Below the pieces are notes generated by a model. The model was not told where the DNA came from, did not search any database, and was given only the letters and a program-made list of their open reading frames with translations. A stretch of DNA of 64,000 nt from Chloroflexota bacterium (GTDB lineage Bacteria; Chloroflexota; Chloroflexia; DAOUBH01): NCBI GenBank assembly GCA_034432775.1, contig DAOUBH010000024.1, positions 15,982 to 79,981 of the forward strand. Direction: 5' to 3'. A program made the translations under genes and the position numbers. How positions within the stretch are numbered: position 1 is the first letter of the stretch; each line of letters begins with the position of its first letter. This document shows positions 2,634 through 55,231 of the stretch, piece by piece.

Positions 2634-4121
2634 TTGAAACGCACCCTAAAAATTTTGATTGTGGCAGCCGAAGCCGTTCCCTTTGCAAAAGTCGGAGGCA
2701 TGGCCGACGTAGTCGGGGCGCTTCCTATTGCCCTGAAGCGACTGGGGCACGACGTTCGTGTCGCCATCCCTAAATATGGGAAGATCAGCGAAAGCGAGTT
2801 TAATCTGTCAAAGGTCGTCGACCCAGTGGCTGTCCCCCTGGATAACCGTGAGGAGCCTGCCACGATTTACTTGGGATACATGCGGGAAGACATACCAGTT
2901 TACTTGGTAGCCAGTCACAAGTATTTTGGTCGGGAGGGCATATACGGTTATCCAGACGATGACGAACGGTTCGTCTTCTTCTGTAGGGCTGTTTTGGAGA
3001 TGTTAAAGCCCCTGGGGTGGGTTCCAGATGTCATCCACTTGAATGACTGGCATACGGCGATAATCGCCAATTGGCTGAAGACAATACTGTCTAACGATCC
3101 GGTATTTTCCCAAATAGCGACTCTCTACACTATCCATAATTTAGCCTACCAGGGTATATTTGGCTATCGTGTGCTGGAGATCGCTGGTCTGTCCCAGTAT
3201 GGGTTCATCTATCACAAAGACGTTAGGGACCTCGACAACGTAGTAGATCTGATGGCTCGAGGAATACTTTTTTCCGATGTCATCACGACCGTCAGCGAGC
3301 GATATGCCCAGGAGATCCTCACTCCGGAGTTCGGGGAGCGCCTCGATCCTTTGCTTAGAGATAGGAAAGATCGCCTCTTCGGCGTACTTAACGGGATCGA
3401 CGTGGAGGCCTTAAATCCAGCCACGGATCCGAACATTGCAGCCACGTACGATACATCTTCATTGGAGAGACGATCGGCTAACAAGTTGGCCCTTCAAAGA
3501 GAGTTCCAACTCGATGAGGATCTCCAACGGCCAGTGGTGGCTATGATCTCCAGGCTTGTCGACCAGAAGGGCCTCGACATTCTAGCCGAAGCCATACATC
3601 CAATGCTGAGGTATCTACCTGTGCAGTTCGTTCTGCTAGGGACGGGCGACCAACACTATCAAGAGTTATTCCGGGCATTGTCGAGCCAGTACCGCGGCCG
3701 AACCGGGGTTGCGTTGACCTTCAACGCTGCACTGGCACAATGCATATATGCGGGTTCGGATATGTTCATGATGCCATCAAGATTTGAACCTTGCGGTCTG
3801 GGCCAGATGATCGCCATGAGGTACGGATCGATACCCATAGTCCGGAGGACAGGAGGACTGGCGGACACAGTAGAAGACTACGACCCTGCTACGGGAGCAG
3901 GCACAGGCTTTGTGTTTGACGATTACAACCCCTGGGCCCTCTTTGCGGCTGTCGTCAGGGCCGTGGAGAACTACCGGGTGCCCGAACGGTGGCGTGGGGT
4001 AATGTTGAACGCCATGGTTAAGGACTTCTCATGGGAGCGTTCGGCGCGTCGTTATGTGGAGCTGTACGAGCTGGCTATCGACTTCAATTTGAAGGATAAA
4101 AACATTGCAGCAGCCACCTAA
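2634..4121 (+). CDS. glgA: Glycogen/starch synthase (GT5, ADP-glucose type)
   Basis: KILIVAAEAVPFAKVGGMADVVGALP matches the GlgA KxGG motif and N-terminus. TTG start at 2634 sits 6 nt after RBS GGGAGGGG (the ORF track starts at 2616). Confidence 0.9.
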   Translation: MKRTLKILIVAAEAVPFAKVGGMADVVGALPIALKRLGHDVRVAIPKYGKISESEFNLSKVVDPVAVPLDNREEPATIYLGYMREDIPVYLVASHKYFGREGIYGYPDDDERFVFFCRAVLEMLKPLGWVPDVIHLNDWHTAIIANWLKTILSNDPVFSQIATLYTIHNLAYQGIFGYRVLEIAGLSQYGFIYHKDVRDLDNVVDLMARGILFSDVITTVSERYAQEILTPEFGERLDPLLRDRKDRLFGVLNGIDVEALNPATDPNIAATYDTSSLERRSANKLALQREFQLDEDLQRPVVAMISRLVDQKGLDILAEAIHPMLRYLPVQFVLLGTGDQHYQELFRALSSQYRGRTGVALTFNAALAQCIYAGSDMFMMPSRFEPCGLGQMIAMRYGSIPIVRRTGGLADTVEDYDPATGAGTGFVFDDYNPWALFAAVVRAVENYRVPERWRGVMLNAMVKDFSWERSARRYVELYELAIDFNLKDKNIAAAT

Positions 4122-16720: not shown

Positions 16721-17656
16721 ATGGCATCAAACAATCTAGCCTCAATGCGACTCACTGTCGTTTATGTGAACTTTAACGCTACGGACTATTTGCTTCGCTC
16801 TCTGTCGTCACTGCGCGACGAGCTCAGTTCGTGCGCCGACCTGCTTTCGGGCTTCGACGTAACTGTCGTCGACAATGGGTCTGCACGTGGGTCTTTGAGG
16901 GCCCTTCAACGGCTGGGGGAAGTCAAAGTTGTTACCCTTGATCGAAATGTAGGTTTCGCAGCAGCTAACAACCTTGCCTTCAAGATGTTTCCAGCAGATT
17001 TGTACCTCCTACTCAATCCCGACATCGTCCTTCTGCCAGGCTGCCTACGTTCCCTGCTGGATCTTGCGAGGCGAGAAGGTGTGGCCGTCTCGGCGCCACT
17101 GCTGCTTAACCCCGATGGGTCGCTTCAATCGGCAGGCTACCGCTTTCCCACGCTAGTCACCAGTCTTATAGAAGCCTTTCCGGTATCCGGGCGCATCTAT
17201 AACTCTAGGCTCAACGGTAGAGCTAGAATCGCCAGGGCACCATACGAGGTGGATTATGTGCTGGGAGCTGTCATGCTGGTTAACCGTCGCGCCGTGGATC
17301 ACGTTGGGTTAATGGACGAGGGTTACTTCATGTACAGCGAGGAGGTAGACTGGTGTCACCGTTTCCGCATTTGTGGCTGGAAGGTGATGGTCCATCCCAA
17401 AAGTGCAGCCATACACTTTGGTGGCGCGAGCACCGGACAAAGGCCCCAGGAAATGTGGTATTACTTGCAGAGGAGCCGGTACCTTTACTATTCCAAGTAT
17501 TATCCCGGCGGGTTCGTGGAAGGACACCGCTGGATCACCAGAATCGGTACTCTGCGCTTAGCGCTAGCAACCTGGCTTCGTTGGAAAAGGGGGATCGTTA
17601 ACATGGAGGAAAGGGATAGACTCTGGCGACTTTACGGCCAAGTCTTCAGGTTATGA
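16721..17656 (+). CDS. Glycosyltransferase family 2
   Basis: N-terminal VVYVNFN..VVDNGS and a DxD-type GT-A fold pattern. 311 aa. Confidence 0.8.
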   Translation: MASNNLASMRLTVVYVNFNATDYLLRSLSSLRDELSSCADLLSGFDVTVVDNGSARGSLRALQRLGEVKVVTLDRNVGFAAANNLAFKMFPADLYLLLNPDIVLLPGCLRSLLDLARREGVAVSAPLLLNPDGSLQSAGYRFPTLVTSLIEAFPVSGRIYNSRLNGRARIARAPYEVDYVLGAVMLVNRRAVDHVGLMDEGYFMYSEEVDWCHRFRICGWKVMVHPKSAAIHFGGASTGQRPQEMWYYLQRSRYLYYSKYYPGGFVEGHRWITRIGTLRLALATWLRWKRGIVNMEERDRLWRLYGQVFRL

Positions 17657-18408
17657 GGGACCTTCTAACGGTTGTAGTTCTCGCCAAGAACTCCGAGCGT
17701 ACCCTGGGCCTGTGTCTCCACTCATTGCTTCCTCTAGGCGCCACAATGTTGGTTGTCGATGCAGGCAGTACTGACAGAACCGCGCAGGTTGCACGCGAGC
17801 TTGGGGCGGAGGTAGTGTACCATCCCTTTGCAGACTTCGCTTCCCAAAGAAACTGGGCTCTCGGCCTGGTCAGGACCCCGTGGGTGCTATTCGTTGACTC
17901 CGATGAAGAGGTCACAGTCCATCTCGCAGAAGAGATCCAGGAAGCTGTGCGCGCTACCGAGGTTGCGGGCTGGTGGATCCCGCGGAAGAACATCATATTG
18001 GGAAGGTGGGTGAAATACGCAGGATGGTACCCGGACTATCAGCTGAGGCTCTTCCGAGTGGATCGGGGCCGCTTTGACGAGCGTCGGCCTGTCCATGAAC
18101 TTGTGCAGCTCGATGGCCGGACAGGAAAACTTTCGTCTCTGCTTGTCCACAGAAACTATGACAGTTTACGGCAGCTTGTGGCCAAGCAGCGGTTCTATGC
18201 TGTTCTTGCGGCGCGGACGCTTCACTATTCGGGTTATCGACCCCGGCTAAGGAGCCTCCTGGGAATGCCTCCAAGGGAGTTTTGGCGACGGTACGTAACT
18301 TTGAAGGGTTATAAGGAGGGTCTCGTAGGCCTAGTTTTGGCTTCCGTCATGGCCTGGGCCGAGTTTCTCACGCATATGTATCTACTCAGAGGCCATGGGA
18401 GACACTAG
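17653..18408 (+). CDS. Glycosyltransferase family 2 (short form)
   Basis: LTVVVLAKNSERTL...VVDAGSTDRT...VDSDE. Overlaps its neighbours by 4 and 14 nt, suggesting an operon. Confidence 0.75.
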   Translation: MRDLLTVVVLAKNSERTLGLCLHSLLPLGATMLVVDAGSTDRTAQVARELGAEVVYHPFADFASQRNWALGLVRTPWVLFVDSDEEVTVHLAEEIQEAVRATEVAGWWIPRKNIILGRWVKYAGWYPDYQLRLFRVDRGRFDERRPVHELVQLDGRTGKLSSLLVHRNYDSLRQLVAKQRFYAVLAARTLHYSGYRPRLRSLLGMPPREFWRRYVTLKGYKEGLVGLVLASVMAWAEFLTHMYLLRGHGRH

Positions 18409-19366
18409 CGTAGTGGTCGTCAATTGGAATTCAGGCCCGTATCTGGCCCGATGCCTCTCTTCCCTGAGAGGTCAGCAGGGGCTGTCAGAGATAATCGTGG
18501 TCGACAATGCCTCCACAGACGACAGTCTGTGGCTGGCGCGTTCGCTCAAAGACGTTCGCTTTATAGAAATGGGTAGTAACGCGGGCTACGCCTCCGCTGT
18601 AAACGTAGGGCTAAGCGCAAGCAGGGGGCCATACATCGTTTTGTCTAATCCCGATGTAACGTTCTGCGAAGGTTCGATTCTGGCGATGGCCCAGGTCATG
18701 GATAGGTTGCCCTTGGTAGGTATGGTAGGACCTATGTTAGTGAGCCCCGATGGGTCGTACCAACCCTCCGTGCGGCGATTTCCCCACCCAATTTTGTGGG
18801 CTTTCGACGGTACTGTACTGGCAGACCTATGGCCCAACAACCCGTGGCGCAGGTGGTTCCTGGGTTACGATCGCCGTCAGGATCAGGGTGGTCCGGTAGA
18901 TTGGCTCAGTGGGGCTGTCCTAGCAGTGCGCCGGCGGGCGGTCGAAGATGCAGGCGGCATGGATGAGCGCTACTTTATGTATTCGGAGGAGCTCGACTGG
19001 TGCGTGAGGCTCCATCGGCGAGGTTGGCTGGTCTGGTACGAGCCGACGGCAAAGGTTGTCCACTGGGGTCAGATAAGTAGCTCCCAAGTACCGGTCGAGA
19101 CCCACTTGAGGTATCAGGCGAGTCGCCTCAGATACCTTGCCACTTATCACGGCAAAGGATGCGCCCAGCTCTTTTCGTTTCTACTTTATGTAGACTACAG
19201 TGTCCGTCTAGCCCTGGAAGCGACCAAATGGGCCCTAGGGCACCGGCGAGATCTGAGGCGGTACAAGATGCTTCTTTACTGGCAAGTGCTGGTGTCGGCT
19301 TTACTACGGGGTTGGCATCCATCGATAGAGCGGCCCTCTAAGTCAGCGCAGGGGAGCCAAGCTTGA
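18395..19366 (+). CDS. Glycosyltransferase family 2
   Basis: SVVVVNWNSGPYL...IIVVDNASTDDS matches the GT2 pattern (rhamnosyltransferase-like). Confidence 0.8.
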   Translation: MGDTSVVVVNWNSGPYLARCLSSLRGQQGLSEIIVVDNASTDDSLWLARSLKDVRFIEMGSNAGYASAVNVGLSASRGPYIVLSNPDVTFCEGSILAMAQVMDRLPLVGMVGPMLVSPDGSYQPSVRRFPHPILWAFDGTVLADLWPNNPWRRWFLGYDRRQDQGGPVDWLSGAVLAVRRRAVEDAGGMDERYFMYSEELDWCVRLHRRGWLVWYEPTAKVVHWGQISSSQVPVETHLRYQASRLRYLATYHGKGCAQLFSFLLYVDYSVRLALEATKWALGHRRDLRRYKMLLYWQVLVSALLRGWHPSIERPSKSAQGSQA

Positions 19367-20517
19367 GGAACCTGCTTCTTGTCTCGGGGGAGTACCCACC
19401 CACGGTAGGAGGTGTGGCCCATTACTCTTACCGTCTTGTCACGGGGCTAACTGAGATTGGCTGGCTGGTGAAGGTGGCAACGGTAACCCGAAAGCCCAGA
19501 TGGCAACCTCCGGACCATACATTATCCCTTGGATACAGGTGGGGCTGGCCGGCCTTGGCAAGAACGTTACATTTGGCGAAGGTCTTTGGGGCAGATGTCA
19601 TAAGCCTGCAGTATCAGACCGGCTGCTACGCAATGCACCCAGCTGTGAATCTGCTGCCCTTGGCTCTGAAGTTTGCAGGCAGACCTACGGTGACCACCTT
19701 TCACGACATGCTGGCACCTTACTTGTTCCCTAAAGCTGGCCGGATCCGTCAGCTTGCCAACCTGATGTTAGTTGCAGCTAGTGAACGGGTCGTTCTCGTC
19801 GACCCCGGGGACCTGCCAAAGATTCCGGAACGTTTCAGGTCGCGTGTGAGATTGGTGCCCATAGGTCCCAATGTCCTGCCCCCCGAGGTGGTAGATCTGG
19901 ACCATCGTCGAAACTCTTTTGGATACCGCTTGGTGTATTTTGGACTTGCCAACATGTCGAAGGGTTTGGACTTGGCCATAGCGACCATGGCGCGTCTGCT
20001 GGAGATGGGCCCCAACGTTCCCTGGGAGCTGAGAATCGTGGGAGGAGGCGTTGCCACGGACCCGCAGAATGTACAGTATCGCAGACATTGTGTTGAACTG
20101 GTCTCGTTGCTCAAATTGCAGGACAGAGTCACTTTCGTGGGAGAGGTTGGAGAAGAGGAGGTGCGCCGTGAGCTTCTCGGGGCCGATGTAGCTATACTCC
20201 CCTACCGGGACGGTGTCAGCTACCGCCGTGGATCTCTACTGGTGTGCCTAAGCCACGGCCTGCCAGTGGTCACTTGCGGTCCATTGCCCCAGTCACCACC
20301 TCCAGGATGGCCGATTTTCCAAAACGGTTACAACCTGGTGGCTTGTCCTAGCGGCGATCCCGAATGCCTAGCTCAGCAGGTAGCCCGTCTGGCGGATGAA
20401 CACGACGTCAGGTTTGCTATAGCTGGGGCAGCCCTGAAGACAGCTGACTTCTTTCGGTGGGACACTATTTGCTCGCAGATGAGTTCTGTTTTTATCGATG
20501 TGGAGAAGGCTGTTTGA
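19363..20517 (+). CDS. Glycosyltransferase family 4 (GT-B, retaining)
   Basis: MRNLLLVSGEYPPTVGGVAHYSYRL is the GT4 N-terminal signature. 384 aa. Confidence 0.75.
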   Translation: MRNLLLVSGEYPPTVGGVAHYSYRLVTGLTEIGWLVKVATVTRKPRWQPPDHTLSLGYRWGWPALARTLHLAKVFGADVISLQYQTGCYAMHPAVNLLPLALKFAGRPTVTTFHDMLAPYLFPKAGRIRQLANLMLVAASERVVLVDPGDLPKIPERFRSRVRLVPIGPNVLPPEVVDLDHRRNSFGYRLVYFGLANMSKGLDLAIATMARLLEMGPNVPWELRIVGGGVATDPQNVQYRRHCVELVSLLKLQDRVTFVGEVGEEEVRRELLGADVAILPYRDGVSYRRGSLLVCLSHGLPVVTCGPLPQSPPPGWPIFQNGYNLVACPSGDPECLAQQVARLADEHDVRFAIAGAALKTADFFRWDTICSQMSSVFIDVEKAV

Positions 20518-22417
20518 CGACAACCATATGACGCAGCGGGCCCCACTGGTAACCCATTGGGGACCTCTAGCAGCCCTGGCGGCGTTGGCATTTTTGCTAC
20601 GGCGCTATCATCTCGGCTATCAGAGCCTATGGTTCGACGAAGCCGATATCGTGATGAGGGCCCAAGTGCCCCTAGGAGAACTGCTGAGCTCCTTGCTGCG
20701 TCCAGGCGAAAATGGTCCCCTGTACACTCTCCTGCTGCATCTGTGGATCGCCGTGTTCGGTGATGCCGAGACCCGAGTTCGGATGCTCTCGGTGGCCTTT
20801 GGGGTACTTCTGGTGCCGGCGGTCTATTTCCTGGCGGAAAAGTTCTCGGATCGCCGCGCCGGTTTAATCGCTGCCCTGCTGTTAGCTATATCCCCCTTCC
20901 AGATCTGGCAGTCACAGGAAGCGAAGATGTACTCCATGGCTACGTTGCTTGCAGCGACCAGTACCTTGGTGCTCATGGCCTGGAAGTACCTGGGCAAATT
21001 GACTTGGAGCTACCCGATTCTGATGATCGGTGCTATTCTCTCCCACATGCTTTGTATCCTTCTGCTACCCTTTCATCTTCTTGCGCACGCTGCAGGGAGA
21101 ATTGGGCGGAGGCTCCCCATAGCCATCACCACCGTGATCTTAGTGGTATTTGTTGGGATCTTGCTGATGGCTGCTGCCCTAGGTGACACTGGTAGCCATC
21201 CGTATAGGCCCGTGGGAGTTCTCGAAATGTTGCAGGTCATGGCCAAAACCTTTTCCGTGAACCGTGCTGATCCAACTACCGAGCTCACAGGCGCGGTCTC
21301 CTCGGCAGTTCTGGCCTTAGTGGGCATTGTCGCTTTAACACTCTCACGAAGGCAACAGGGGCTGCTCCTTGCGGCGTTCCTGTTCGTGCCACTGGCACCT
21401 TTCATCGTCATTAACCGAACCGTAGGCCTTTTCGAGGAGCGGTACCTGTTCGTCACTTTCCCTCCCTATTTGGTGGCTGTCTCTGTAGGCATTGCGTGGC
21501 TCTGGTCGCGTCGCTGGGTGGTAGGTCTTATGCCATTGGTTCTACTAGTGGGGTTGAGCGGTATAGCTCTCCAGGAAGTCAACTACAGCGATGCTCCCAA
21601 CCGGGAGAACTGGCGCGAGGCAGTACGTTATGTAGCCGAGCACTTTCGAGATGAAGACGCGGTGGCAGTACAACCCGGCTACCTAGTGACAGCGGTGAAT
21701 TATTACGCGAAGCGTTACCCTGACCTAGCAGGAGTTCGGGTGATTACCCCTCCATCTATGAATCGGCCCGATGTGACCGAGAGGTATATGGAGGCGGTGT
21801 TGACGCAGGGCACCATTGGCAAAGAGCGTGTGTGGCTGTTCTACGATGAGAATCGCTCCTCCTTGGAGGATCCTCGGGCTAGGGTTTGGGAATGGTTTCA
21901 CTACAACTGGTTCACCACCTACCAGGAGCCCTACGTTGGCTTCAAGCTGTACAACTACAGCTTTAACGGCCCTTATAAGGTGGCGGCGCCATGGCCACAG
22001 GTCAGGCTCAGAATAAGCTACCTCAACGGATGGAGCTTGATAGGGCTAGATTACGGCACTCCTTTGCGTACTCCCGAGGTCGCTCCAGGTGGACTGCTCC
22101 CACTGACCTTGCGCTGGTTGATCACGGAGGCGCCCATAACGAGCCCACGGGCAATACTGAAACTGGTCGGTTCAGACGGACACACTGCGGTCGTGCAGGA
22201 GGGCCTTCCCCTCAACGGAAACCTGGAGCTATCGAGATTGCGGAAAGGCAGTGATCTGTGGGACTATCGCGATCTCGAGATCCCTCGAGAGCTGAGCCCT
22301 GGCAGGTATGACCTTTACATCGAGGTTTTGGATAGCTATGGGGTACCCATCGAGGCTTTCCTGAGCGGTGGCCTCAAATCGATGGATGTGGCTCTGGACT
22401 CCATATGGGTTCGCTGA
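20498..22417 (+). CDS. GT-C family membrane glycosyltransferase (PMT/ArnT-like, GT39/GT83)
   Basis: 639 aa with >10 TM helices. N-terminal region ...YHLGYQSLWFDEADIV... matches the PMT_2/ArnT loop with the DE motif. Confidence 0.75.
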   Translation: MWRRLFDDNHMTQRAPLVTHWGPLAALAALAFLLRRYHLGYQSLWFDEADIVMRAQVPLGELLSSLLRPGENGPLYTLLLHLWIAVFGDAETRVRMLSVAFGVLLVPAVYFLAEKFSDRRAGLIAALLLAISPFQIWQSQEAKMYSMATLLAATSTLVLMAWKYLGKLTWSYPILMIGAILSHMLCILLLPFHLLAHAAGRIGRRLPIAITTVILVVFVGILLMAAALGDTGSHPYRPVGVLEMLQVMAKTFSVNRADPTTELTGAVSSAVLALVGIVALTLSRRQQGLLLAAFLFVPLAPFIVINRTVGLFEERYLFVTFPPYLVAVSVGIAWLWSRRWVVGLMPLVLLVGLSGIALQEVNYSDAPNRENWREAVRYVAEHFRDEDAVAVQPGYLVTAVNYYAKRYPDLAGVRVITPPSMNRPDVTERYMEAVLTQGTIGKERVWLFYDENRSSLEDPRARVWEWFHYNWFTTYQEPYVGFKLYNYSFNGPYKVAAPWPQVRLRISYLNGWSLIGLDYGTPLRTPEVAPGGLLPLTLRWLITEAPITSPRAILKLVGSDGHTAVVQEGLPLNGNLELSRLRKGSDLWDYRDLEIPRELSPGRYDLYIEVLDSYGVPIEAFLSGGLKSMDVALDSIWVR

Positions 22418-22452
22418 CCAGGGACGAATTTTGAAAAAAGTTGTGTGGCCCC

Positions 22453-22481
22453 TTGAAAGTAGACCGATCCTGTACTAGAAT
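22453..22481 (+). promoter_or_regulatory. Sigma70-like promoter TTGAAA-N17-TAGAAT driving the intergenic RNA
   Basis: TTGAAA 22453-22458, 17-nt spacer, TAGAAT 22476-22481. No ORF lies downstream on this strand. Confidence 0.4.
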
Positions 22482-22487
22482 GATAGT

Positions 22488-22647
22488 GGTCCGAGCAATT
22501 GAGTAGGGTAAACCGGTCGGACCAAAAGGATACCGAACATTGAGTACGGGAAAGTCAGATCGAAAGGTCTGGTGGAACCCGAAAGATGCATAGGGAACCT
22601 GAGGCTGGCCGGGTAAACCGAAAGGTTGCTCGGACCTATTGTTCTTC
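22488..22647 (+). ncRNA. Candidate structured small RNA of unknown class (~150 nt)
   Basis: 5' GGUCCGAGCAA (22488-22498) pairs perfectly with UUGCUCGGACC (22626-22636). Internal GNRA-capped hairpins (GAUCGAAAGGUC, AACCGAAAGGUU). GGGUAAACCG is directly repeated at 22506 and 22611. A U-rich tail follows at 22637-22647. The promoter lies immediately upstream. Between convergent genes. Confidence 0.45.
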
Positions 22648-23112
22648 AAGGCTCTGCAGGTATTCCTCCCAGTACTCCGGGAAGTACCAGTAACGTACCT
22701 TTCCCGTCTTAAGGTACTCTATGAGTGGTTCACGCAGGCTGGGGCTCCTCAGGTAGCTTGGTAGCTCGTTGAGGGGAACCCACTCAGCCTTCTCGACCGT
22801 ATCGTCGCCCGGAACCCGTACTTGCTGAAACCTATCCACCCGGAAGGCGCACGCCAGGTACAGGCGTTTCAGCGTTGTACTGCGGGCCTCGGCGACATAG
22901 GCTAGGGCTCCTGGGGTGACGTCGAGGCCGGCTTCTTCGAGGAGCTCGCGCCGCATGGCATCTATTACACTCTCGCCGTCGTGTGCCCTTCCGCCGGGTA
23001 GGCTCCATACGGGTGGTCGATCCGGGTACCAACGGTTTGCCACGAGAAGCAGCTTCCCGCCCTCGATAATAATCCCCTGCCCAACCCTATAGGCTAGCCA
23101 TCCCTGGAGCAC
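22636..23112 (-). CDS. NUDIX hydrolase
   Basis: Nudix box SLPGGRAHDGESVIDAMRRELLEEAGL. Confidence 0.8.
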   Translation of the reverse strand: MLQGWLAYRVGQGIIIEGGKLLLVANRWYPDRPPVWSLPGGRAHDGESVIDAMRRELLEEAGLDVTPGALAYVAEARSTTLKRLYLACAFRVDRFQQVRVPGDDTVEKAEWVPLNELPSYLRSPSLREPLIEYLKTGKVRYWYFPEYWEEYLQSLEEQ

Positions 23113-23116
23113 CTAA

Positions 23117-24568
23117 TTACCTCTCGCGCCACGTCAGCTCAGGACGACGTGCTGCCAAAGCATCATCCAGTCTCCGTACCGGCGTCTTATGCGGGGCCGA
23201 TCTAACGGTTTCCGGTTCCGACATAGCTTCCCTAGCAATGGACCTCATGACCTCCACAAATCGATCGAGGGTTTCTCTGCTTTCCGTCTCCGTTGGCTCG
23301 ATCATGAGCGCCTCCTCCACGATCAGAGGAAAATAGATCGTGGGAGCATACATGCCATAGTCGAGAATGCGTTTGGCTATGTCAAGAGTCTTCACTCCAT
23401 ATTCTTGCCTATACCGTTTGCCAGAGAGTACAAATTCGTGCATGCAGCGCCTGTCGTAGGCTACGTCGTAGACGTCTTTCAACTTTGTCAAAAGATAGTT
23501 TGCTGCTAGCACTGCGTCTTCGGCAACCTGCCGAAGTCCCTCGGACCCCAAGGATCGTATGTAAGTATAGGCGCGCACATGGACGCCGAAGTTGCCGTAG
23601 AAAGAGCGAACCTTGCCGATAGAGTGCACCGGATGCCGGAAAAAATACTCGGTACGGCCATCGGATGTTCTGGCATCAACCACTGGGTCCGGCAGAAAGT
23701 CAGCCAGGTGCGCCTTAACCCCCACAGGCCCTGCTCCCGGACCGCCCCCGCCATGGGGCGTAGAGAAGGTTTTGTGGAGATTGAAATGCAGGACGTCGAA
23801 TCCCAGGTCGCCGGGCTTGGCTATGCCCAAGATCGCGTTGAGGTTCGCACCGTCTCCATAGACCAGTCCACCCACTCGGTGGACTGCTTCGGTCACCTCT
23901 AGTATATGCTCCTCGAAGAGACCCAAGGTGTTGGGGTTGGTGAGCATAAGGGCAGCCGTTCTGTCCGACAGAAGGGATCTCAAGTGAGATAGGTCTATGT
24001 TGCCCCGAGCATCCGACTTTACCGTTACAACTTTGTAGCCGCAGATCGCAGCCGTGGCCGGATTTGTACCGTGGGCAGAATCGGGGACCAGAACCTCCGA
24101 TCGGGCTGAGTCCCCACGGTAGCGGTGGTATGCTTGGATCATCAGCATTCCTGTGAGCTCGCCGTGAGCTCCGGCGGCTGGGTGCAGTGTCACCGCGTCC
24201 ATGCCGCCAATTTCAGCGAGATAGGTTTGAAGCTCGTACATGATTTGGAGTGCCCCCTGGGCCATCTGTTCTGGGGTTCTCGGGTGAAGGTAGCTGAAGC
24301 CCAGCAGTTGAGCGGCTTCTTCGTTCACCTTGGGGTTGTACTTCATGGTGCAGGAACCTAGAGGGTAAAAGCCGACGTCCACGGCATAGTTCAGTCGAGA
24401 GAGATGGACGAAGTGTCGCACCGCGTCTACCTCGCTGATTTCGGGCAAGGGAAGTGATGCCCTTAGCAGATCCTCCTCCGGAAGAGGCGTTTCAGGGACG
24501 TCCAGCTCCGGAAGCGAGAAGCCCCTTCGGCCCGGCGAAGATATGTCGATAAGCAGTGGCTCTGTCAT
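23117..24568 (-). CDS. gcvPB: Glycine dehydrogenase (decarboxylating) subunit 2 (glycine cleavage P-protein, C-terminal subunit)
   Basis: [17 protein letters not shown] and a PLP-dependent fold throughout. 483 aa. Confidence 0.95.
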
Positions 24569-41964: not shown

Positions 41965-42556
41965 GTCCGTCCCTCAGGGGGAAGGTAGCCAGCCGTTCGT
42001 ACACGGCACCACCTCTCTGCAAATGACTTCTCATAAGAGACACATGAGTCACCACAAACTCGATCCTTACTTCGCGGAGACGATGCGCTACGTTGCCCAG
42101 GCTGACCAGTTCACTCCTAGATAGGCGCCTGCGGACCCTTGCCAAGGTCAGGTGTGGGGAAAAGGCTCGTGCTTCCCGCGGGAGGTTGAGTCTTGCGAGA
42201 GCTTCATCTAGAGAGACTGCCAGTTTTGACAGCGGCGTAACATCCCCTGTGATGCCGAGCCATATTACCCTTGGGCTATCTGCGGACGGAAAGACGCCTA
42301 GACCACTGATGACGACCCTGAAAGGTCGATAGCCGCCCACTGCGGGGGCAGCCAGACGTTCGATTTCGGGCACCAACGTTGCTGGCACGTTGCCCAGGAA
42401 TTTCAACGTGATGTGGACCATATTGGGTCTAACGTAAGCTAGATCAGGGAGCGCATCCCGAACTATCTGCTGAACTTGCCCAACGCGCACCAAGGCGTCT
42501 TGGGGCAACTCTATGGCAAGAAAAGCTCTTACATCCGACCCTGCCGATGTGGTCAT
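41957..42556 (-). CDS. thpR: RNA 2',3'-cyclic phosphodiesterase (2H family)
   Basis: Two H-x-T-x motifs (HITLKFLG and HLTLARV) are spaced as in LigT/ThpR. Confidence 0.8.
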   Translation of the reverse strand: MTTSAGSDVRAFLAIELPQDALVRVGQVQQIVRDALPDLAYVRPNMVHITLKFLGNVPATLVPEIERLAAPAVGGYRPFRVVISGLGVFPSADSPRVIWLGITGDVTPLSKLAVSLDEALARLNLPREARAFSPHLTLARVRRRLSRSELVSLGNVAHRLREVRIEFVVTHVSLMRSHLQRGGAVYERLATFPLRDGHG

Positions 42557-45500
42557 GCCTTTCTTAGGGCCAGCGTCACTTTCTGGCCGTCCACATTGGC
42601 TGTAGTGGTATAAGCACCCGTTGGAGGTTCTTCCAGTAGAAGCTGAACGGCCAAAGTTTCGGTGGCTATGTACTCCCTGGCTGCTTCCACAGCCTCCTTC
42701 AGGGCTGTGTCTCCCCTTATGTAGAGCACAATGCGGTCGTCGATATTCAAGCCAGCAGATTTCCTGGCTTGCTGTATGTGCCGCACAAGCTCCCTGGCTA
42801 TTCCTTCGCGTCGAAGCTCATCGGTCAGGGTCAGGTCGACAGCAACTGCAAATCCGTATTCACTGGCGGCTGAGTACCCCGGCTTGGCCCTGAGTTCCAC
42901 GATCAGTTCTTCAGGCTCTAGTTCCAAGCTCTCCCCGTCCACAATGACAGTGATGGGCTCGTGTCGCCTCACCTTTCGAGCTATTTCTGTCGTGTCGAGA
43001 GACCTCAGGTAGTCCTTAACACGGTCGTACAGCCGCCCCAGCTTTGGCGCCAGTACTTCCCCATTAGGTTTCACTTCGTAGGTCGCGATTTCATCCTCCC
43101 TCTCCACGAACCTTACTGCCTTCACGTTGAGCTCATCCTGAATGAGATCAAGAAGAGGCTGTACTGCCGAACTAACAGAGGGATCCTCCGACCATATCTG
43201 TAGCTCCCTCAGCGGCTGTCTGACCTTCACCTTGGCCTTATTTCTTGCGGCTCTGCCGAGCGCAACGATCCGCATGGCTGCACCCATAGAGGCGATGAGA
43301 TCTTCGTCGATCAGGCTAACGTCCGGCTCCGGATAGTCCAGAAGGTGCACGCTCTCGGGTGCGGATGGATCTACAGACCGCACAAGGTTCTGATACATGC
43401 GTTCTGCAAGGAAGGGCATTATGGGGGCTATCAGTGTCGCAAGGGTTGTGAGCACCTCATAGAGGGTCTTGTATGCTGCTGCCTTATCTGTATCGTTCTC
43501 GCTCTTCCAGAACCTTCGCCGGCTCCGCCGTATGTACCAGTTAGAGAGGTCATCGATGAGTCTCTCGACGTCGCGGGTGAGGGCCGCGACGTTGAACCGG
43601 TCCAGCTCTTCGTTGGCGGTGCCGACGACCTGGTGCAGACGGGCCAAGATCCAGCGGTCCAGGAGGGATCTGCGATCTATGGGAAGCTCGTAGCTCCTTG
43701 GGTTCACCTTGTCGAGGTTTGCATAGGTCACGAAGAAAGAGTAAGCGTTCCAAAGGACCAACAGCCTACGCTTGACCTCTTCTGCTGGACCCCAGCCAAA
43801 GAGGAGATTCTGCTGAATGTTCTGGGAGGCGTACATCCATCGCATCACGTCGGCGCCCATGCGCTCGGCGGCTTCGTCGAACCAGATGGCGTTTCCCAGG
43901 CTCTTGTGCATCGGGCGACCTATTTCGTCGTAGACCTTCTCGTATACCATAGCGCACCGATAGGGCGCCATGCCTTCCAGGGTGACGCTCATGAACAGCA
44001 TGGAGTAGAACCAGAGGCGTATCTGTTCACGCATCTCGACGATGTAGTCCGCAGGAAACCATTGCTGCCAGTAGCTCCGGTCGTACAGGTAATTCAGGGT
44101 GGAGTAAGGCACGATGCCAGCATCAAGCCAACAGTCTCCAACTTCCGGAATGCGCCGCACCGGTTGACCGCAACCGCTGCAGGCGATCACCACATCATCG
44201 ATCCAGGGTCGGTGGAGTTCCACCAATCTATCCAGGCCCGAGATGGCCCTTTCCGCAAGCTCCTTTCGGCTGCCGACTACGGTAAGCTTGCCGCAGCTCC
44301 CACAGGGGTAGAAGGGGAGCGGGAGCCCCCAGTAACGTCGCCGGGAGATCACCCAGTCGTGCATATTGTTGAGCCAGTCTTCCATGCGCTTCAGGGCATA
44401 CCCGGGGATCCACTCGACGGTCCGGGCTGCTTCAATAAGTTTTGGCCTTATCTCTTGAACGGAGATGAACCACTCGTCAACCAACCGGAAGACCAGTTCT
44501 TCGCCACAGCGCCAGCATACCGGATATCGGTGTGTGTAGTCTTGTGTTCTATACAGGTAACCCTTTTGTCTGAGATTTTCCACTATCCGCGGAGCGCTCT
44601 CTCGCACATTGGATCCCGTGAGTTCCCCGAACCCTTCCAGGAATTGACCGTCCTCGCTGAGAGGTGCTATGACGCTGAGGCCGTGCTCTCGCCCGAGCTC
44701 GAAGTCCTCTTGACCGCATCCTGGAGCTATGTGGACGATACCCGTGCCCTCTTCCTCTCCCACCTGATCCCACGGTATCACCCTATGGTTCACACCTTGT
44801 TGGACTGGCAGCTCGTCAAAGGGGCCTCTGTATCGCCATCCCAACAATTCGCGCCCCTTCAGGACCGCTACTACCTCGTAGGGGCCCTGGATTGCAGAAT
44901 CCAAGGTGCCCCTTGAGAGATAGTAATATTCATTGTCTTGACGTACCTTGACGTACTCTAGGTCTGGGTGGACAGCTACAGCGGTGTTAGATGTCAGTGT
45001 CCACGGCGTCGTGGTCCAAACGAGCAAGTATTCCTGAGGTCGGCCTTCCAGGGGGAGCTTTAGAAAGATTGACAGGTGAGTTATGTCCCTGTAAGAGTCA
45101 AGCATCTCGTGCTGAGACAAGGATGTGCCACACCGGATGCACCAGGGCATGGTCTGGTGGCCCTGATATAGCCATCCCAGTTCATGGCAGCGTTTGAGGA
45201 AATACCAGATGTGCTCCTCATTTTCGTCGGACATGGTGTAGTAGGAGTTCGGCCAATCCATCCATTGGCCGAGCCGAATGGACTGTTGCGTCTGTATCTT
45301 GGAGTAATAGAGTACGCGTTCTTTACACTTACGAGAGAAATTCTCGAGCCCGTAGGCCTCGATTTCACGCTTGGAGTTTAGACCCAGCTCCTTTTCTACC
45401 TCCACTTCTACCCAGAGGCCTTGACTGTCGAAGCCATTTTGGAATCGCTGGTCGTAGCCCTTCATGGCCTTGTAGCGCTGATATATGTCCTTGTAGGTCC

Positions 45501-45684
45501 GACCCCAGGCATGGTGGACCCCCATCGGGTTGTTGGCTGTAATGGGACCGTCTATGAAGGACCATCGAGGCTTGCCCCGGTTCTTTTCGACCAATTTGTA
45601 GAAGATACGCTTCCGTTCCCAGAACTCTAGAATTTCATGCTCGTGGTTCGGAAAGTCCAGTCTACTGGCAACTGGCTGAAACAT
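42553..45684 (-). CDS. ileS: Isoleucine--tRNA ligase, type 2 (eukaryote-like)
   Basis: HMG-type class I motif PMGVHHAWGRT. KMSKS-like KSLGN. 1043 aa with a type-2 C-terminal region lacking the type-1 zinc finger. Confidence 0.95.
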   Translation of the reverse strand: MFQPVASRLDFPNHEHEILEFWERKRIFYKLVEKNRGKPRWSFIDGPITANNPMGVHHAWGRTYKDIYQRYKAMKGYDQRFQNGFDSQGLWVEVEVEKELGLNSKREIEAYGLENFSRKCKERVLYYSKIQTQQSIRLGQWMDWPNSYYTMSDENEEHIWYFLKRCHELGWLYQGHQTMPWCIRCGTSLSQHEMLDSYRDITHLSIFLKLPLEGRPQEYLLVWTTTPWTLTSNTAVAVHPDLEYVKVRQDNEYYYLSRGTLDSAIQGPYEVVAVLKGRELLGWRYRGPFDELPVQQGVNHRVIPWDQVGEEEGTGIVHIAPGCGQEDFELGREHGLSVIAPLSEDGQFLEGFGELTGSNVRESAPRIVENLRQKGYLYRTQDYTHRYPVCWRCGEELVFRLVDEWFISVQEIRPKLIEAARTVEWIPGYALKRMEDWLNNMHDWVISRRRYWGLPLPFYPCGSCGKLTVVGSRKELAERAISGLDRLVELHRPWIDDVVIACSGCGQPVRRIPEVGDCWLDAGIVPYSTLNYLYDRSYWQQWFPADYIVEMREQIRLWFYSMLFMSVTLEGMAPYRCAMVYEKVYDEIGRPMHKSLGNAIWFDEAAERMGADVMRWMYASQNIQQNLLFGWGPAEEVKRRLLVLWNAYSFFVTYANLDKVNPRSYELPIDRRSLLDRWILARLHQVVGTANEELDRFNVAALTRDVERLIDDLSNWYIRRSRRRFWKSENDTDKAAAYKTLYEVLTTLATLIAPIMPFLAERMYQNLVRSVDPSAPESVHLLDYPEPDVSLIDEDLIASMGAAMRIVALGRAARNKAKVKVRQPLRELQIWSEDPSVSSAVQPLLDLIQDELNVKAVRFVEREDEIATYEVKPNGEVLAPKLGRLYDRVKDYLRSLDTTEIARKVRRHEPITVIVDGESLELEPEELIVELRAKPGYSAASEYGFAVAVDLTLTDELRREGIARELVRHIQQARKSAGLNIDDRIVLYIRGDTALKEAVEAAREYIATETLAVQLLLEEPPTGAYTTTANVDGQKVTLALRKA

Positions 45685-45700
45685 TTCGATCCTCCATTGG

Positions 45701-46035
45701 TCAGAATAGAAAGAGGTCTCATCCTTAAGGACGAGACCATAGACGTCATGAGAGGTCCCGCGGTACCACCCTGATTAGTGCTCCGCACTCCCTCCTTACG
45801 GGTGCTTTTAGACACCCGCGCCGAGGATAACGGTCGGCGGAACCGGCCGAGCCTACTGGGCTCAGGGCCGTTCGGTCGGCAGCTCGGGAACGATTTTCGG
45901 TCGACCTCTGGGGCTCCGCTCCCACCGTCCGGAGCTCGCTGTGCCCATCGTTACGACCTACTCTTTTCCGTCGTCGCCTGTAACTATGGGCTGTGTTTCA
46001 AATATTAAGATATCCCCTGGCTGAGCCGATGTCAA
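45701..46035 (-). ncRNA. T-box riboswitch leader of ileS (with terminator/antiterminator)
   Basis: The minus strand has the T-box sequence AAUCAGGGUGGUACCGCGGG (plus 45759-45772 and flanks). A terminator hairpin GGUCUCGUCC-UUAA-GGAUGAGACC plus UCUUUCUAUUCU (45701-45738) sits just 5' of the ileS RBS. A TTGACA-N17-TATCTT promoter is at ~46008-46036. The candidate Ile specifier AUC lies in GAAAAUCG (plus 45892-45894). Confidence 0.8.
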
Positions 46036-46042: not shown

Positions 46043-48094
46043 TTATTTTTCAGCTGGCTCGAGGGACACGGCGGCAACTTGTATCCCAAGGCTTCTTGGA
46101 TCTGATGGCACTGAGTGTGCATCGTCCACTTTTATTTCCAGGAGCACCATCTGCCCCGCTATCAAGTGCCCCGCTACCTCCAAAGTTTGCCAACGCCAGT
46201 CACCTTCCATTGCAACGGCGGTACCAATGGGTGCTCCCGATAGATACAGGCGAAAAGTTGTCCCGTGCGTTTTGGTCGATGCGCAGAGAACTTTGAGGCG
46301 GACTCTGCTACTCGGGGCCCATAGCCTCACCTGTGCCCGTGCCCCGGTCCACCGGTATGACAGTCCACCCGAGGTTTCCGGGCCGTAGAACCCCCGGACG
46401 TATCCAAGATCGTCTGTACCGATGTGTAGCGAGGATCTGGGTGGAACTGGGAGATGGTCCCATGACCAGGTTTCAGCCCAGAGGGCTACTGGACCGCGAT
46501 CCGGTGGCGGCATACCTAGCCCAACTTGGCGGGTCAGCCACACCTGCCAGGCTCCGATTCTCGGATCCTCTAGCCAGATTCCACGGGCCTGTCCCAGAAA
46601 TCGGAAGGCCGATGTGGTTGCCCCATGCTTTCCGAGCAACCTGCCTAGAGCCAGATAGAAGTCGGGCTGAGCTTTCATGCCAATGGCCTTTAGGAACGCT
46701 CTTTCGGCAAGGCCGGTCATCCCGGCAGCTTCGGCTGCTCTCCCAACGGTGTACACTGTGTGAGCAGCCAAGTCTTGGGACCAGGCAGGGAAGAGGAGCG
46801 AAAGAGAGAGGACGATTAAAAGGATGGGTGCAATGGCGGAAAAGAGCAGCGATCTGTCCCACCGGAGGTGCCACGGTACAGCAGAAACCAGAGGCACCAC
46901 GTAGGGGAGAAAAGCCAGCTTGTAGCGGAACACCGGCTCGATGAATATGGCTGTGGCAGTCTGACCTGCTATCAGCAGAATCGTCATGGTTCGGTACGAG
47001 GAGCCTTTCACGAGCCCTAACCCTACGGCTGCCAGAGCAGTCAAGGCCAGATACCATACAGTACCCACTGAGGCGAATATGGTTTGTACCCAGGAAGCGA
47101 CCGCTGGGAACCTGCTGCGAAGGTATATACCCCATTCCCTATATCTATCAACAGTCCAGGAGTACCGAAGGCGGTCCAGGGCCCGCAAGGCAAATTGCCG
47201 TGGGTGTCCCACGATCCACTCTATGGCTCTACTCACTCCATAGCTTTCCCTGTCTCCTGGATTGGATATACGCATCAGATCGGAGTAGACCTGCGTCCGT
47301 GTTAGGTCGGTGTTGTGCTGGTAGAGATTGACTCCCAACGTTGTGTCCAGGAGGATGAACCTTTGATAGGCCAACCAGTTGCGTATGGTCCATGGAGCCA
47401 GACAGGCTGCCAAGACTGCGAAGAACAGGCCCAGAACCGCTATCCTTTCGTACAGGCGCCATTCGCGCCGACAGAGAGTCCATAGCGCAAGGAGGAACAC
47501 GAAAGGCAGCACCGAAGCGCGGCTGAGAAGTCCAAGGCCCATGAAGAATCCCGCAACGGCGAACCGCTTAAGTTGTCGGTTTTTGAGGCCTGCTAGAATG
47601 CTGGTCAGGGCAGCAAGTGTAAGAAAGGTCGTTAAGCCTTCAGCAAAGAGGTATTGGCTGGCCACAGGGGCCGTTGGATCAAGTGCCAGGATAACACCCG
47701 CAAGACGCGCGGCTTTTGGCCCATATTCGATGTTGGCCGCTAGGTATGCCACTAGGGCGGTGAGTGCTCCGATGGCCGCCTGGAAGAGTTGCATTGGGAG
47801 AAGGTCACCATGCCCCATGGACAGGAAGAAGGCCAAAACCAAAGGGTAGAGCGGGGGCCTGATCCATGGCCACTTGTCAGCGAAGTTGCCTGTTTCAAGC
47901 AATGATCTTGCCAGGCCGAAGTAGTTGCCCTCGTCTCCCCTGAGCACGTAGTCGACGTTGGGTGTGCCGCCTGATGGGAAGATAGCCCGCCAAAGAAAGG
48001 CTAAGACCAGTACGGCCGAGACCCACATCCAACGGCTATACTTTGTGGGAAATATCCTGTGCTTGTGATCCCAATTACCGGCCCGTTGCATCAT
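46043..48094 (-). CDS. GT-C family membrane glycosyltransferase (ArnT/PMT-like) with large C-terminal extracytoplasmic domain
   Basis: 683 aa. N-terminal TM helices with ...GDEGNYFGLARSL...WPWIRPPLYP.. resemble ArnT/PMT loop 1. Confidence 0.7.
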   Translation of the reverse strand: MMQRAGNWDHKHRIFPTKYSRWMWVSAVLVLAFLWRAIFPSGGTPNVDYVLRGDEGNYFGLARSLLETGNFADKWPWIRPPLYPLVLAFFLSMGHGDLLPMQLFQAAIGALTALVAYLAANIEYGPKAARLAGVILALDPTAPVASQYLFAEGLTTFLTLAALTSILAGLKNRQLKRFAVAGFFMGLGLLSRASVLPFVFLLALWTLCRREWRLYERIAVLGLFFAVLAACLAPWTIRNWLAYQRFILLDTTLGVNLYQHNTDLTRTQVYSDLMRISNPGDRESYGVSRAIEWIVGHPRQFALRALDRLRYSWTVDRYREWGIYLRSRFPAVASWVQTIFASVGTVWYLALTALAAVGLGLVKGSSYRTMTILLIAGQTATAIFIEPVFRYKLAFLPYVVPLVSAVPWHLRWDRSLLFSAIAPILLIVLSLSLLFPAWSQDLAAHTVYTVGRAAEAAGMTGLAERAFLKAIGMKAQPDFYLALGRLLGKHGATTSAFRFLGQARGIWLEDPRIGAWQVWLTRQVGLGMPPPDRGPVALWAETWSWDHLPVPPRSSLHIGTDDLGYVRGFYGPETSGGLSYRWTGARAQVRLWAPSSRVRLKVLCASTKTHGTTFRLYLSGAPIGTAVAMEGDWRWQTLEVAGHLIAGQMVLLEIKVDDAHSVPSDPRSLGIQVAAVSLEPAEK

Positions 48095-53778: not shown

Positions 53779-53921
53779 GCTGCTAGGCATTCTTAGGGGC
53801 GTCGTCGAGTGAGGAACGACGCAAGCGTTCATCGAGCAGATCGAAGGACCTGCAAATAGTCAGGCCCTGGCATGAGAGTCCCAGGGCCTTTAGATCGGAT
53901 TGGATATATTGGCTGACGGGT

Positions 53922-53992
53922 GGGCCTGGCAGGATTCGAACCTGCGACCTGTCGATTATGAGTCGATTGCGCTACCGCTGCGCCACAGGCCC
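53922..53992 (-). tRNA. tRNA-Met (anticodon CAT; elongator type or Ile2-lysidine; 3' CCA not fully encoded)
   Basis: A manual cloverleaf fits: acceptor GGGCCUG/CAGGCCC, D-arm GCGC-AGCGGUA-GCGC, anticodon loop CUCAUAA, T-arm GCAGG-UUCGAAU-CCUGC, discriminator A. G1-C72 is paired, so it is not an initiator. Confidence 0.85.
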
Positions 53993-54004
53993 CTATCACT
54001 TAAC

Positions 54005-54033
54005 ATTATACTTTTCCGGCTTCGCCCTATCAA
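54005..54033 (-). promoter_or_regulatory. tRNA-Met promoter TTGATA-N17-TATAAT
   Basis: The minus strand reads TTGATAgggcgaagccggaaaagTATAATgttaagtgata, followed directly by the tRNA 5' end. Confidence 0.5.
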
Positions 54034-54207
54034 GGCAGACTGCCTTTTCTGCCGCCACGAACGCGTGCACTATCGTGTCACACCTGTCCGCGATTTCCGC
54101 GCCTATTGTGTCAATGCTATACTCTTCATAGTGTCGAGGACATGCCCACGGTACATCGCGTCGCGCCGTAGAAGCCATCCGGACCGCCGAGGCACAAGAT
54201 ACGGCCG

Positions 54208-54474
54208 TTAGGATGACCCCCCGAGACGCGACCATAGGTCTTCTGGCCAGTCGCGATCGGGCGCCAAATCGGCCTCGAAATCCACATGGCCGCCTTCTCT
54301 CAGCTTGGCCCGGAACAGCCCCACAGGCTTACCGTTGACGAACACGTGCAGTACTGCCGTGGCTGCCCTGAACTTAAGAAGCACTTCATAGGCAAGGTCC
54401 GCTTGTGAGCCGTCAGACCGTCGCAGGGTAGCAGTTCCAACTGCTAGTCGTTGTGTTCTCATCTCATGCCCCAT
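54208..54474 (-). CDS. Hypothetical small protein
   Basis: 88-aa ORF with no recognised motif. Confidence 0.3.
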   Translation of the reverse strand: MGHEMRTQRLAVGTATLRRSDGSQADLAYEVLLKFRAATAVLHVFVNGKPVGLFRAKLREGGHVDFEADLAPDRDWPEDLWSRLGGSS

Positions 54475-54525
54475 CGCTCACCCGAGGTACCCAACCGCTC
54501 GGCAGCACATAGATAGATGTCGACC

Positions 54526-54750
54526 TCAGTAGCAACAACTTTCCTTGTAGCCACACTTTGGGCAGAAGGAAAGTCGTCCACCAGCAAGACTCGGCATCAC
54601 ATGGCCACAGTTCGGGCATTCGTGCAGTTTTTCCGGTGGCGCTAGCACGTTGTCTAACTTCAGTCTATTTCCGCTCTCTCTTGATGACTTCTCTTGTCGG
54701 TCAGTTTCCCTTTGATTCGGCATCCTTAGGTCTCGCCTTGGCCCTTTCAA
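54526..54750 (-). CDS. Zinc-ribbon domain small protein
   Basis: CPNCGHV...CPKCGY gives two CxxC pairs at the C-terminus. Start uncertain. Confidence 0.4.
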   Translation of the reverse strand: MKGPRRDLRMPNQRETDRQEKSSRESGNRLKLDNVLAPPEKLHECPNCGHVMPSLAGGRLSFCPKCGYKESCCY

Positions 54751-54985: not shown

Positions 54986-55231
54986 GGCAGATATGCTCCA
55001 GATACCTTACGTGAATTATAGGGCTACCTACAGCTCTTGTGGTACCATACTGGATGGGTCCTGCGCAGTGCGCGGCGCTGTTCGAAGTCTTGATCCAACA
55101 CTAACGAACAGGGGCCTGGTCGCTGGCGCTTGCTCAGGGTGGGATAGACCACTAGGGCAGGTTTGCTGGCAGAAGACCCCACCTGGCTAGGCCGGGTTCA
55201 CAGACTTTGCAGCCTACGGCTGGGCGGGACC

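Follow-up and report, generated by a model that had tools for sequence, protein, structure and literature searches.

What occupies the gap between two genes that converge in a 64,000-nucleotide (nt) stretch of Chloroflexota bacterium DNA (contig DAOUBH010000024.1, positions 15,982 to 79,981; the window, in what follows)? The two genes encode a PMT_2 / family-39-type glycosyltransferase (20498-22417, + strand) and a NUDIX hydrolase (22636-23112, − strand; stop codon 22636-22638). Their stop codons stand 218 nt apart, and a reading made from the letters of the window alone had proposed that the DNA between them specifies a structured RNA with a promoter of its own. We find in this gap a 149-nt element at 22488-22636, on the same strand as the glycosyltransferase gene, that is preceded at a fixed distance by a conserved promoter, is held under strong purifying selection, and varies among its relatives in ways that a single long irregular hairpin accommodates. 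The element is very probably a genuine functional RNA gene, and we regard it as a well-supported candidate for an undescribed, rare, clade-restricted family of small structured RNA.

Conservation of the element and its promoter

Syntenic loci were found through the neighboring NUDIX, PMT_2, and GcvPB proteins, in related uncultured assemblies and metagenomes, and they supply six distinct versions of the element: that of the window, L006, L002 (shared by L003, L004, and L032), L005 (shared by L044), L008, and L046. These six variants represent approximately four species of one clade, the clade genomes being GCA_964583015.1, GCA_900175145.1, and GCA_900175155.1. Counted from one end of its closing helix to the other, the element is exactly 149 nt long in every variant, with no insertion or deletion, and the variants are 89.3-99.3% identical to one another. 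Set against the remainder of the locus in the same genomes (NUDIX protein 61-65% identical, GcvPB protein 82-83%, GcvPB second codon positions approximately 90%, third codon positions of the flanking genes 36-45% and near saturation, intergenic DNA upstream of the element approximately 53%), this identity means that purifying selection acts on the element more strongly than on even the most constrained positions of a core enzyme. The sequence-only reading had looked to related genomes for corroboration, and their homologous regions are strongly conserved; conservation sets in precisely at the first pair of the closing helix and stops at the last.

The promoter is a sigma-70-type sequence, TTGAAA-N17-TAGAAT, at 22453-22481 on the + strand, 6 nt before the element. 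It is the sole promoter-like site that a promoter scan found in 22000-23200, against an expectation of 0.4, and the near-consensus sigma-70 promoter described at the outset is present where it had been placed. The TTG of the −35 hexamer (22453-22458; TTGAAA here, TTGCGG in relatives, preceded by a conserved CCC) is invariant and fixed in position in all six variants, the spacing from this TTG hexamer to the TAnAnT of the −10 hexamer (22476-22481; TAGAAT here, TATAAT or TACACT in relatives) is always 17 nt, and a constant 6 nt separates the end of the −10 from the helix. The spacer keeps its length while its sequence is unrelated between lineages; fixed hexamers on either side of a diverged spacer are, judging from this alignment, the pattern expected of a working promoter. 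Relatives lacking the promoter, which had been named as potential evidence against the element, were not encountered, and every relative keeps the hexamers in position.

Farther upstream, an A/T-rich block on the + strand, CGAATTTTGAAAAAAG (22425-22440), lies 5′ of the −35 hexamer and reappears as CGAATTTGTGGAAAAC in other clade members, amid intergenic DNA that has diverged; this candidate may be an UP-like element. The constant distance of 6 nt from the −10 hexamer to the closing helix predicts a start of transcription at approximately 22486-22488. We infer that the conserved promoter, possibly assisted by the UP-like block, would start transcription here, at the very foot of a helix of 13 base pairs (bp).

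A purine-rich rod with two repeated modules

The + strand of the element folds with a minimum free energy (MFE) of −66.2 kcal/mol (z = −5.25), a stability that none of 200 shuffles attained; the − strand folds much more weakly (−47.8 kcal/mol, z = −3.1). A single long irregular hairpin, or rod, is the MFE structure of all six variants (−58 to −70 kcal/mol), and the consensus fold of their alignment is the same unbranched rod, composed of eight helices and seven internal loops, all of the loops purine-rich and the largest 5 × 5 nt. No multi-helix junction or pseudoknot is predicted in the MFE or consensus fold, and almost no single-stranded run exceeds 5 nt.

The element starts GUGGUCCGAGC and is closed by the perfect 11-bp inverted repeat that had drawn attention to it (22488-22498 with 22626-22636). 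As RNA this closing helix, P1, extends to 13 bp, two U-G pairs included, formed by GGUCCGAGCAAUU (22488-22500) and GGUUGCUCGGACC (22624-22636), the last base of which falls within the NUDIX stop codon. The bare 11-mer inverted repeat is not rare in the window, so the significance of the helix rests on the fold and on conservation. All 13 pairs are formed in 100% of the cells of the alignment, one A-to-G change in L046 giving a U-G pair on the + strand.

Variation across the relatives, which the sequence-only reading had proposed to examine, proves compatible with the helices, compensatory changes included. In the six-sequence alignment, 99.6% of the cells form standard pairs. The sole unpaired cell is a C-A, at the pair 22517/22608, which is otherwise U-G, U-A, or C-G. 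Both sides have changed together at three pairs, 22506/22619 (G-C to A-U, in two variants), 22524/22600 (A-U to G-C), and 22555/22572 (U-G to G-C, in L002); seven pairs have one-sided, wobble-compatible changes. In the apical stem, two pairs besides 22555/22572 switch between wobble and Watson-Crick. The observed covariation score was reached in one of 500 column shuffles, and pairing falls to 21-51% in a control in which the partners were slid.

The RNA lies on the + strand. The covariance model finds the element in the window as a single copy, with 192.5 bits on the + strand versus 16.7 on the −, and eight invariant G-U pairs exist on the + strand alone. Both changes private to L046 give U-G pairs on the + strand and C-A mismatches on the −, and purine skew reaches its maximum over the element (GC skew 0.29, AT skew 0.35).

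Could the conserved block nonetheless be something other than an RNA gene, such as a gene for a 91-amino-acid (aa) protein on the − strand, a miniature inverted-repeat mobile element, or a conserved DNA site? The gap had been called free of open reading frames (ORFs), and in the mechanical sense it is not, since a 91-aa ORF on the − strand (22374-22649) spans the element, but that ORF is not a gene. The − strand frame through the element is open in all variants, and substitutions by codon position of that frame (53/36/14) are somewhat commoner at the third. However, two of the three − frames are open, as is expected of a pyrimidine-rich strand, and the bias among variable columns by mod-3 position (11/3/7) is not significant. 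The ends of the ORF differ in each lineage, and it is the helix, not a start or stop codon, that marks where conservation stops. Neither Pfam nor NCBIfam has a match for the ORF, and on no contig was a gene called at the site. A small − strand protein was rejected on these grounds.

The terminal inverted repeats might be taken for those of a mobile element, and this candidate too was rejected: unlike a miniature inverted-repeat transposable element, the element exists as a single copy, occupies one and the same syntenic position in every lineage, and is constrained against change, and no second copy was found in the 64-kb window or in approximately 100 kb of related loci. Taken with the G-U-specific changes, which indicate an RNA on the + strand, these observations make a non-RNA explanation highly improbable. 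Between two small genes of L044, at 3057-3096, the RNA model has a weak palindromic match (14.3 bits, E approximately 0.03), which is probably a mere hairpin or terminator.

Read upward from P1 on the + strand, the rod begins with what we term module 1, in which GAGUA (22501-22505) opposes GAAA (22620-22623), each of them invariant in all variants. There follows a symmetric internal loop in which GUAAA (22508-22512) opposes an identical GUAAA (22613-22617), so that the two GGGUAAACC repeats of the element face one another; L002 has one base changed on each strand (GCAAA and GUACA), and the U-A that would face one another at positions 22509 and 22616 (alignment columns 24 and 131) are C-C there. 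Helix P3 pairs its 5′ strand, CCGGUCGG-A-CC-A (22513-22524), with positions 22600 and 22603-22612 of a 3′ strand that occupies 22600-22612. The central segment (22525-22541 on the 5′ side, 22585-22599 on the 3′ side) is built of helices of 2-4 bp separated by purine-rich loops, AAA, AUA, and GAA on the nearly invariant 5′ strand and CAUA and GAA on the 3′ strand. Two of its unpaired positions, 22589 and 22596 (alignment columns 104 and 111), vary jointly (C/A, A/U, A/C) and may mark a non-canonical or tertiary contact. In module 2, GAGUA plus one variable base (22542-22547; AAGUA in L008) opposes GAAA (22581-22584; CAAA in L005), and the rod ends in an apical hairpin (22554-22573) with an 8-bp stem and a GAAA loop, which is GAAG in L002.

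The direct repeats listed in the sequence-only reading are present; GGGTAAACCG, GGAACC(C/T)GA, and ATTGAGTA(G/C)GG(T/G)AAA each occur twice in the element. Module 2 is itself a direct repeat of module 1 (87% over 15 nt), both presenting 5′-(AUU)GAGUA opposite 5′-(C)GAAAG, and the two GAGUA/GAAA modules reflect an internal duplication. In the consensus fold the bulged-G signature, 5′-AGUA opposite 5′-GAA with helices on both flanks, occurs twice, at 22501-22505/22620-22623 and at 22542-22546/22581-22584. Internal loops of the form 5′-AGUA/5′-GAA constitute the bulged-G (loop E / sarcin-ricin) motif, which often serves in recognition by proteins, and we infer that the GAGUA/GAAA loops would adopt it. 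The GNRA-capped hairpins described at first have fared less evenly: in the best-supported fold the sequence AACC-GAAA-GGUU makes up one side, the 3′ side, of an internal loop and not a hairpin, and the apical hairpin does carry GAAA, except in the lineage in which it reads GAAG. Because of that GAAG, a conserved GNRA docking role seems unlikely.

The same features bear on the idea that the RNA works through its own tertiary structure, free of protein, whether by binding a ligand in duplicated tandem pockets, by assembling into a homo-oligomer, or by acting as a ribozyme. Almost all positions are conserved, those in the loops too; the loops are A/G-rich, as is typical of A-minor or non-canonical packing; and the module is duplicated. 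A CC(C/U)(A/G)AGG segment faces an A-rich bulge, an arrangement that we take to bear a loose resemblance to a tetraloop-receptor. Nevertheless, we consider a protein-free tertiary RNA decidedly unlikely: the change from GAAA to GAAG in L002 speaks against a docking tetraloop, the predicted fold has neither junction nor pseudoknot, no gene is placed in cis to be regulated, and there is no similarity to Rfam ribozyme or riboswitch models.

Alternative pairing, the 3′ end, and neighboring genes

The 5′ strand of P1 has a second potential partner. The sequence-only reading had described a helix mutually exclusive with P1, and the pairing exists, as 8 bp between 22487-22494 and 22517-22524; a three-hairpin form that includes it is possible in all six variants. 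What that reading could not convey is the cost, approximately 14 kcal/mol relative to the rod, and it is because of this cost that we read the alternative as an intermediate. The 5′ hairpin is predicted to prevail only while fewer than approximately 120-130 nt have been transcribed, and in these models the three-hairpin form looks like a co-transcriptional intermediate on the way to the rod. In the alignment, 95.8% of the cells of the alternative helices are paired, versus 99.6% for the rod, and no pair unique to the alternative helices has changed on both sides.

One could make more of the alternative form. If the RNA toggled between rod and three hairpins, it could act as a conformational switch or antisense element that controls termination or read-through of antisense transcription into the NUDIX-gcvPB operon, and it would double as the 3′ structure of that operon. 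Four strands do re-pair in every variant (22488-22494 with 22517-22523, 22607-22616 with 22626-22636), the exchanging strands are almost invariant, as expected if each must fit two partners, and the 5′ hairpin is predicted to last until approximately nucleotide 120 has been made; moreover, in all relatives the stop codon of the NUDIX gene adjoins the helix, and a U-rich tail follows the helix. Yet the alternative form is the weaker by approximately 14 kcal/mol in six of six variants, and variation that fits the rod breaks the alternative helices. A helix precedes the U-rich tail in both conformations, so a change in termination is not obvious, and the central 90 nt, which take no part in the exchange, are equally conserved. 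Since all loci come from one clade, conserved synteny is little informative. On balance we judge a switch unlikely.

The 3′ end of the element overlaps the NUDIX stop codon, as had been pointed out. The stop codon and the closing helix have 1 base in common in the window, and in all relatives the stop codon touches or overlaps the final base of the element. The U-rich tail reported 3′ of the helix, UAUUGUUCUU (22637-22646, + strand), is U-rich in all variants, its other strand encoding the last codons of the NUDIX gene. An alternative 12-bp hairpin at the 3′ end (22607-22636) stands immediately before this tail, as does the closing helix, and in the predicted folds the alternative hairpin together with the tail may help termination. 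A plain bidirectional terminator or antisense element, which had been suggested as a further possibility for the locus, cannot account for 149 nt of near-invariant sequence.

Nor does the arrangement of the neighboring genes suggest regulation in cis. No + strand ORF lies downstream of the element, and the next genes are convergent, on the − strand, over more than 2 kb; with no gene on its own strand downstream, the element is not a usual leader or riboswitch, and a cis-regulatory role of this kind was rejected. The gcvPB gene (23117-24568, − strand) is paired with the NUDIX gene, not with gcvT/gcvPA, and the gcvPB-NUDIX pair is kept across the clade; a glycine riboswitch was not detected anywhere in the 64-kb window in the Rfam 15 scan. 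On the other side, a cluster of five glycosyltransferase genes (16721-22417, + strand; three GT2, one GT4/GT1, and one PMT_2) ends just 5′ of the RNA, and a second PMT_2 gene is found at 46043-48094 (− strand).

Several considerations weigh against our reading of the element as a structured RNA gene. A scan of the region called no canonical intrinsic terminator, which leaves the 3′ end uncertain. The covariation rests on three or four independent events among six sequences of one clade, most helices being invariant, and the support that it lends is real but thin. Helix positions as nearly invariant as these are unusual for a purely structural RNA, and the near-invariance could reflect alternative pairings, extended pairing with a target, or overlap with signals of the convergent genes.

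Pairing with targets brings to mind a conventional trans-acting small RNA, one that would recognize mRNAs through a short seed. A promoter of its own and an intergenic position are what one would look for in such an RNA; however, almost no single-stranded run in the rod is longer than 5 nt, conservation extends over all 149 nt instead of being confined to a seed, and no Rho-independent terminator hairpin was detected. We therefore place very little weight on this explanation.

Known RNAs and a possible protein partner

Rfam 15, with its 4227 covariance models, gives no match at the locus at gathering thresholds. When the threshold was relaxed to E ≤ 10 on 22350-22750, only two chance matches appeared, FMR1-AS1 and sR44, outside the element or at its edge, and three homologous loci gave no match at E ≤ 5. 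The initial impression that the RNA belongs to no recognized class holds, then, at strict and permissive thresholds alike. ARAGORN finds no tRNA-like or tmRNA-like gene at the element, its only call being a tRNA-Met at 53919-53992 (− strand). The Rfam matches elsewhere in the window are a T-box, a tRNA, and a 6S RNA. The T-box leader (45724-45983, − strand, 95.3 bits) lies directly 5′ of a class-I aminoacyl-tRNA synthetase ORF (42553-45684, − strand; 1043 aa; domains tRNA-synt_1, Anticodon_1, and DUF5915), which is probably IleRS, and between the tRNA-Met and the 6S RNA there is approximately 1 kb (53993-55054) with no ORF of at least 150 aa.

Outside the clade the element was not found. A five-sequence covariance model, run with filters off on distant relatives reached through their NUDIX (52%), PMT_2 (36-38%), and GcvPB (68%) proteins, gave no match; the next-closest relatives lack both the synteny and a model match. 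Comparison by blastn with plasmids and phages was likewise negative. DNA pattern scans demanded the presence of both GAGUA-type motifs and would thus pass over homologs that have diverged. Within that limit, 185,579 GTDB species-representative genomes gave two chance matches, both at the Parvibaculales tuf-rpsJ junction; viral contigs gave 12, all of them AT-rich coding sequence or chance; and JGI metagenome contigs gave 18, all tandem repeats except L032, the already known contig FWWL01000279, which served as a positive control. GcvPB identity drops from 82-83% in the clade to at most 68% elsewhere among 5.8 billion proteins, the nearest named sequences being those of Chloroflexi/Chloroflexota, Thermomicrobia, and Thermobaculum. 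On this sampling the RNA appears to be confined to an isolated Chloroflexota-like clade that has itself been sampled sparsely; a literature search by assembly accessions found no paper.

Among the known families that the element calls to mind, the Y RNAs deserve particular attention. Xenopus Ro60 contacts the heptamer GGUCCGA in Y RNAs, where the heptamer lies near the 5′ end, within the long stem that joins the two ends of an RNA of 80-130 nt with internal loops; the bacterial form of the contact sequence is GNCGAA(N)G, and bacterial Y RNA genes normally adjoin rsr, which encodes the TROVE-domain ortholog of Ro60 (PMC4201824). The element has GGUCCGA at 22488-22494, the first 7 nt of its closing helix, and we considered whether it might be a divergent bacterial Y RNA whose terminal stem binds the Ro60/Rsr ring through this heptamer while the rest tethers an effector such as an exoribonuclease. 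Its general architecture agrees with that of the metazoan Y1-Y5, Deinococcus Yrn1, and Salmonella YrlA/YrlB RNAs, all small RNAs with a terminal 5′/3′ stem, the remainder given over to internal loops and short helices, and its size is near theirs (149 nt versus 80-130).

It differs from the Y RNAs in that its 13-bp stem is perfect, with no bulged cytidine in any of the six variants, and in that it forms a continuous rod, not a large open loop. No tRNA-like module of the YrlA type was found in the element by ARAGORN or the Rfam tRNA model, and no Y-RNA-type model of Rfam matches at E ≤ 10. A Pfam scan found no TROVE domain among the 20 large ORFs of the window, and none was present among the genes called within 10 kb on either side in the relatives. 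A match of 7 nt is weak evidence, and GGUCCGAG is also found in unrelated RNAs. A Y RNA of this kind is, in our estimation, improbable.

Other likenesses were considered and set aside. The short words CCGAAC and GAGUAGGG, which we take to be common to the element and 5S rRNA, suggested the latter, and 5S rRNA was rejected for want of an Rfam match and because the consensus fold is unbranched where 5S rRNA has a three-way junction. More generally, the resemblances to 5S rRNA, signal recognition particle (SRP) RNA, the glycine riboswitch, and ykkC that CCGAAC, GAGUAGGG, ACCGAAAGG, and GGUCCGAG had evoked are unsupported by matching Rfam models.

What might such an RNA do? The positioned promoter, locked termini, full-length conservation, purine-rich loops, and duplicated module resemble features of the 6S, SRP, and Y RNAs, and for this reason we favor, tentatively and as a possibility that falls somewhat short of probable, a scaffold or decoy that binds protein. 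In such a scheme the 13-bp helix would tie the 5′ and 3′ ends of the RNA together, as in other stable RNAs; the RNA would act in trans, as a scaffold or decoy for a protein; and the two GAGUA/GAAA modules would offer a single protein, or a dimer, a pair of equivalent docking sites.

Few stand-alone RNAs of bacteria are as tightly conserved as this one. Those that are, SRP RNA, 6S RNA, RNase P, tmRNA, and Y RNA, each anchor a basic machine. A 149-nt RNA that tolerates less change than a core metabolic enzyme does at its second codon positions, and that matches none of 4227 families, implies a demanding function that has not been described. Because the RNA is small, present in single copy, and furnished with defined, duplicated modules, its synthesis, probing, imaging, and use as bait for a partner are feasible even though the host is uncultured. 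In a larger context, the element illustrates how much structured RNA may stay hidden in thinly sampled phyla.

The known RNAs nearest to the proposed scaffold or decoy set bounds on the comparison. 6S RNA (SsrS) is, like the candidate, a rod of similar size (approximately 150-190 nt) that has its own promoter and ends in a long helix, and it is a trans-acting, protein-binding decoy. The candidate lacks the large central bubble with which 6S RNA mimics an open promoter, and it gives no score against the 6S model. That model instead matches 55055-55234 (+ strand, 54.2 bits), a canonical 6S RNA 5′ of the MurJ gene (55598-57169), so the genome possesses a 6S RNA in addition to, and separate from, the candidate. 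The small (4.5S) SRP RNA is likewise one irregular hairpin whose termini are paired, and like the candidate it has an apical tetraloop, conserved purine-rich internal loops, which in SRP RNA bind a protein, and very high sequence conservation; unlike SRP RNA, the candidate lacks the domain-IV signature, has an apical stem of 8 bp, and carries a variable tetraloop (GAAG in L002), and no SRP model matches it at E ≤ 10.

The two modules suggest a third comparison, with the 23S sarcin-ricin loop, loop E of eukaryotic 5S rRNA, and loop E of PSTVd, in all of which, as in the candidate, 5′-(G)AGUA faces 5′-GAA(A) between Watson-Crick or wobble pairs. Viroids carry the loop E motif in a rod-like RNA, and the candidate is likewise rod-like. 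It is tempting to imagine that tandem bulged-G modules mimic ribosomal loop E / sarcin-ricin surfaces, capturing a translation factor, a ribosomal protein, a nuclease, or a toxin, or nucleating a new ribonucleoprotein, in which case the candidate would be the first member of a class of stable RNA not yet described, one that matches ribosomal RNA in its constancy; we offer this as a speculation that is unlikely to be right in full. The likeness is one of motif and not of family: the candidate differs from these RNAs in being chromosomal and promoter-driven, in not being rRNA, and in carrying the module twice, in tandem.

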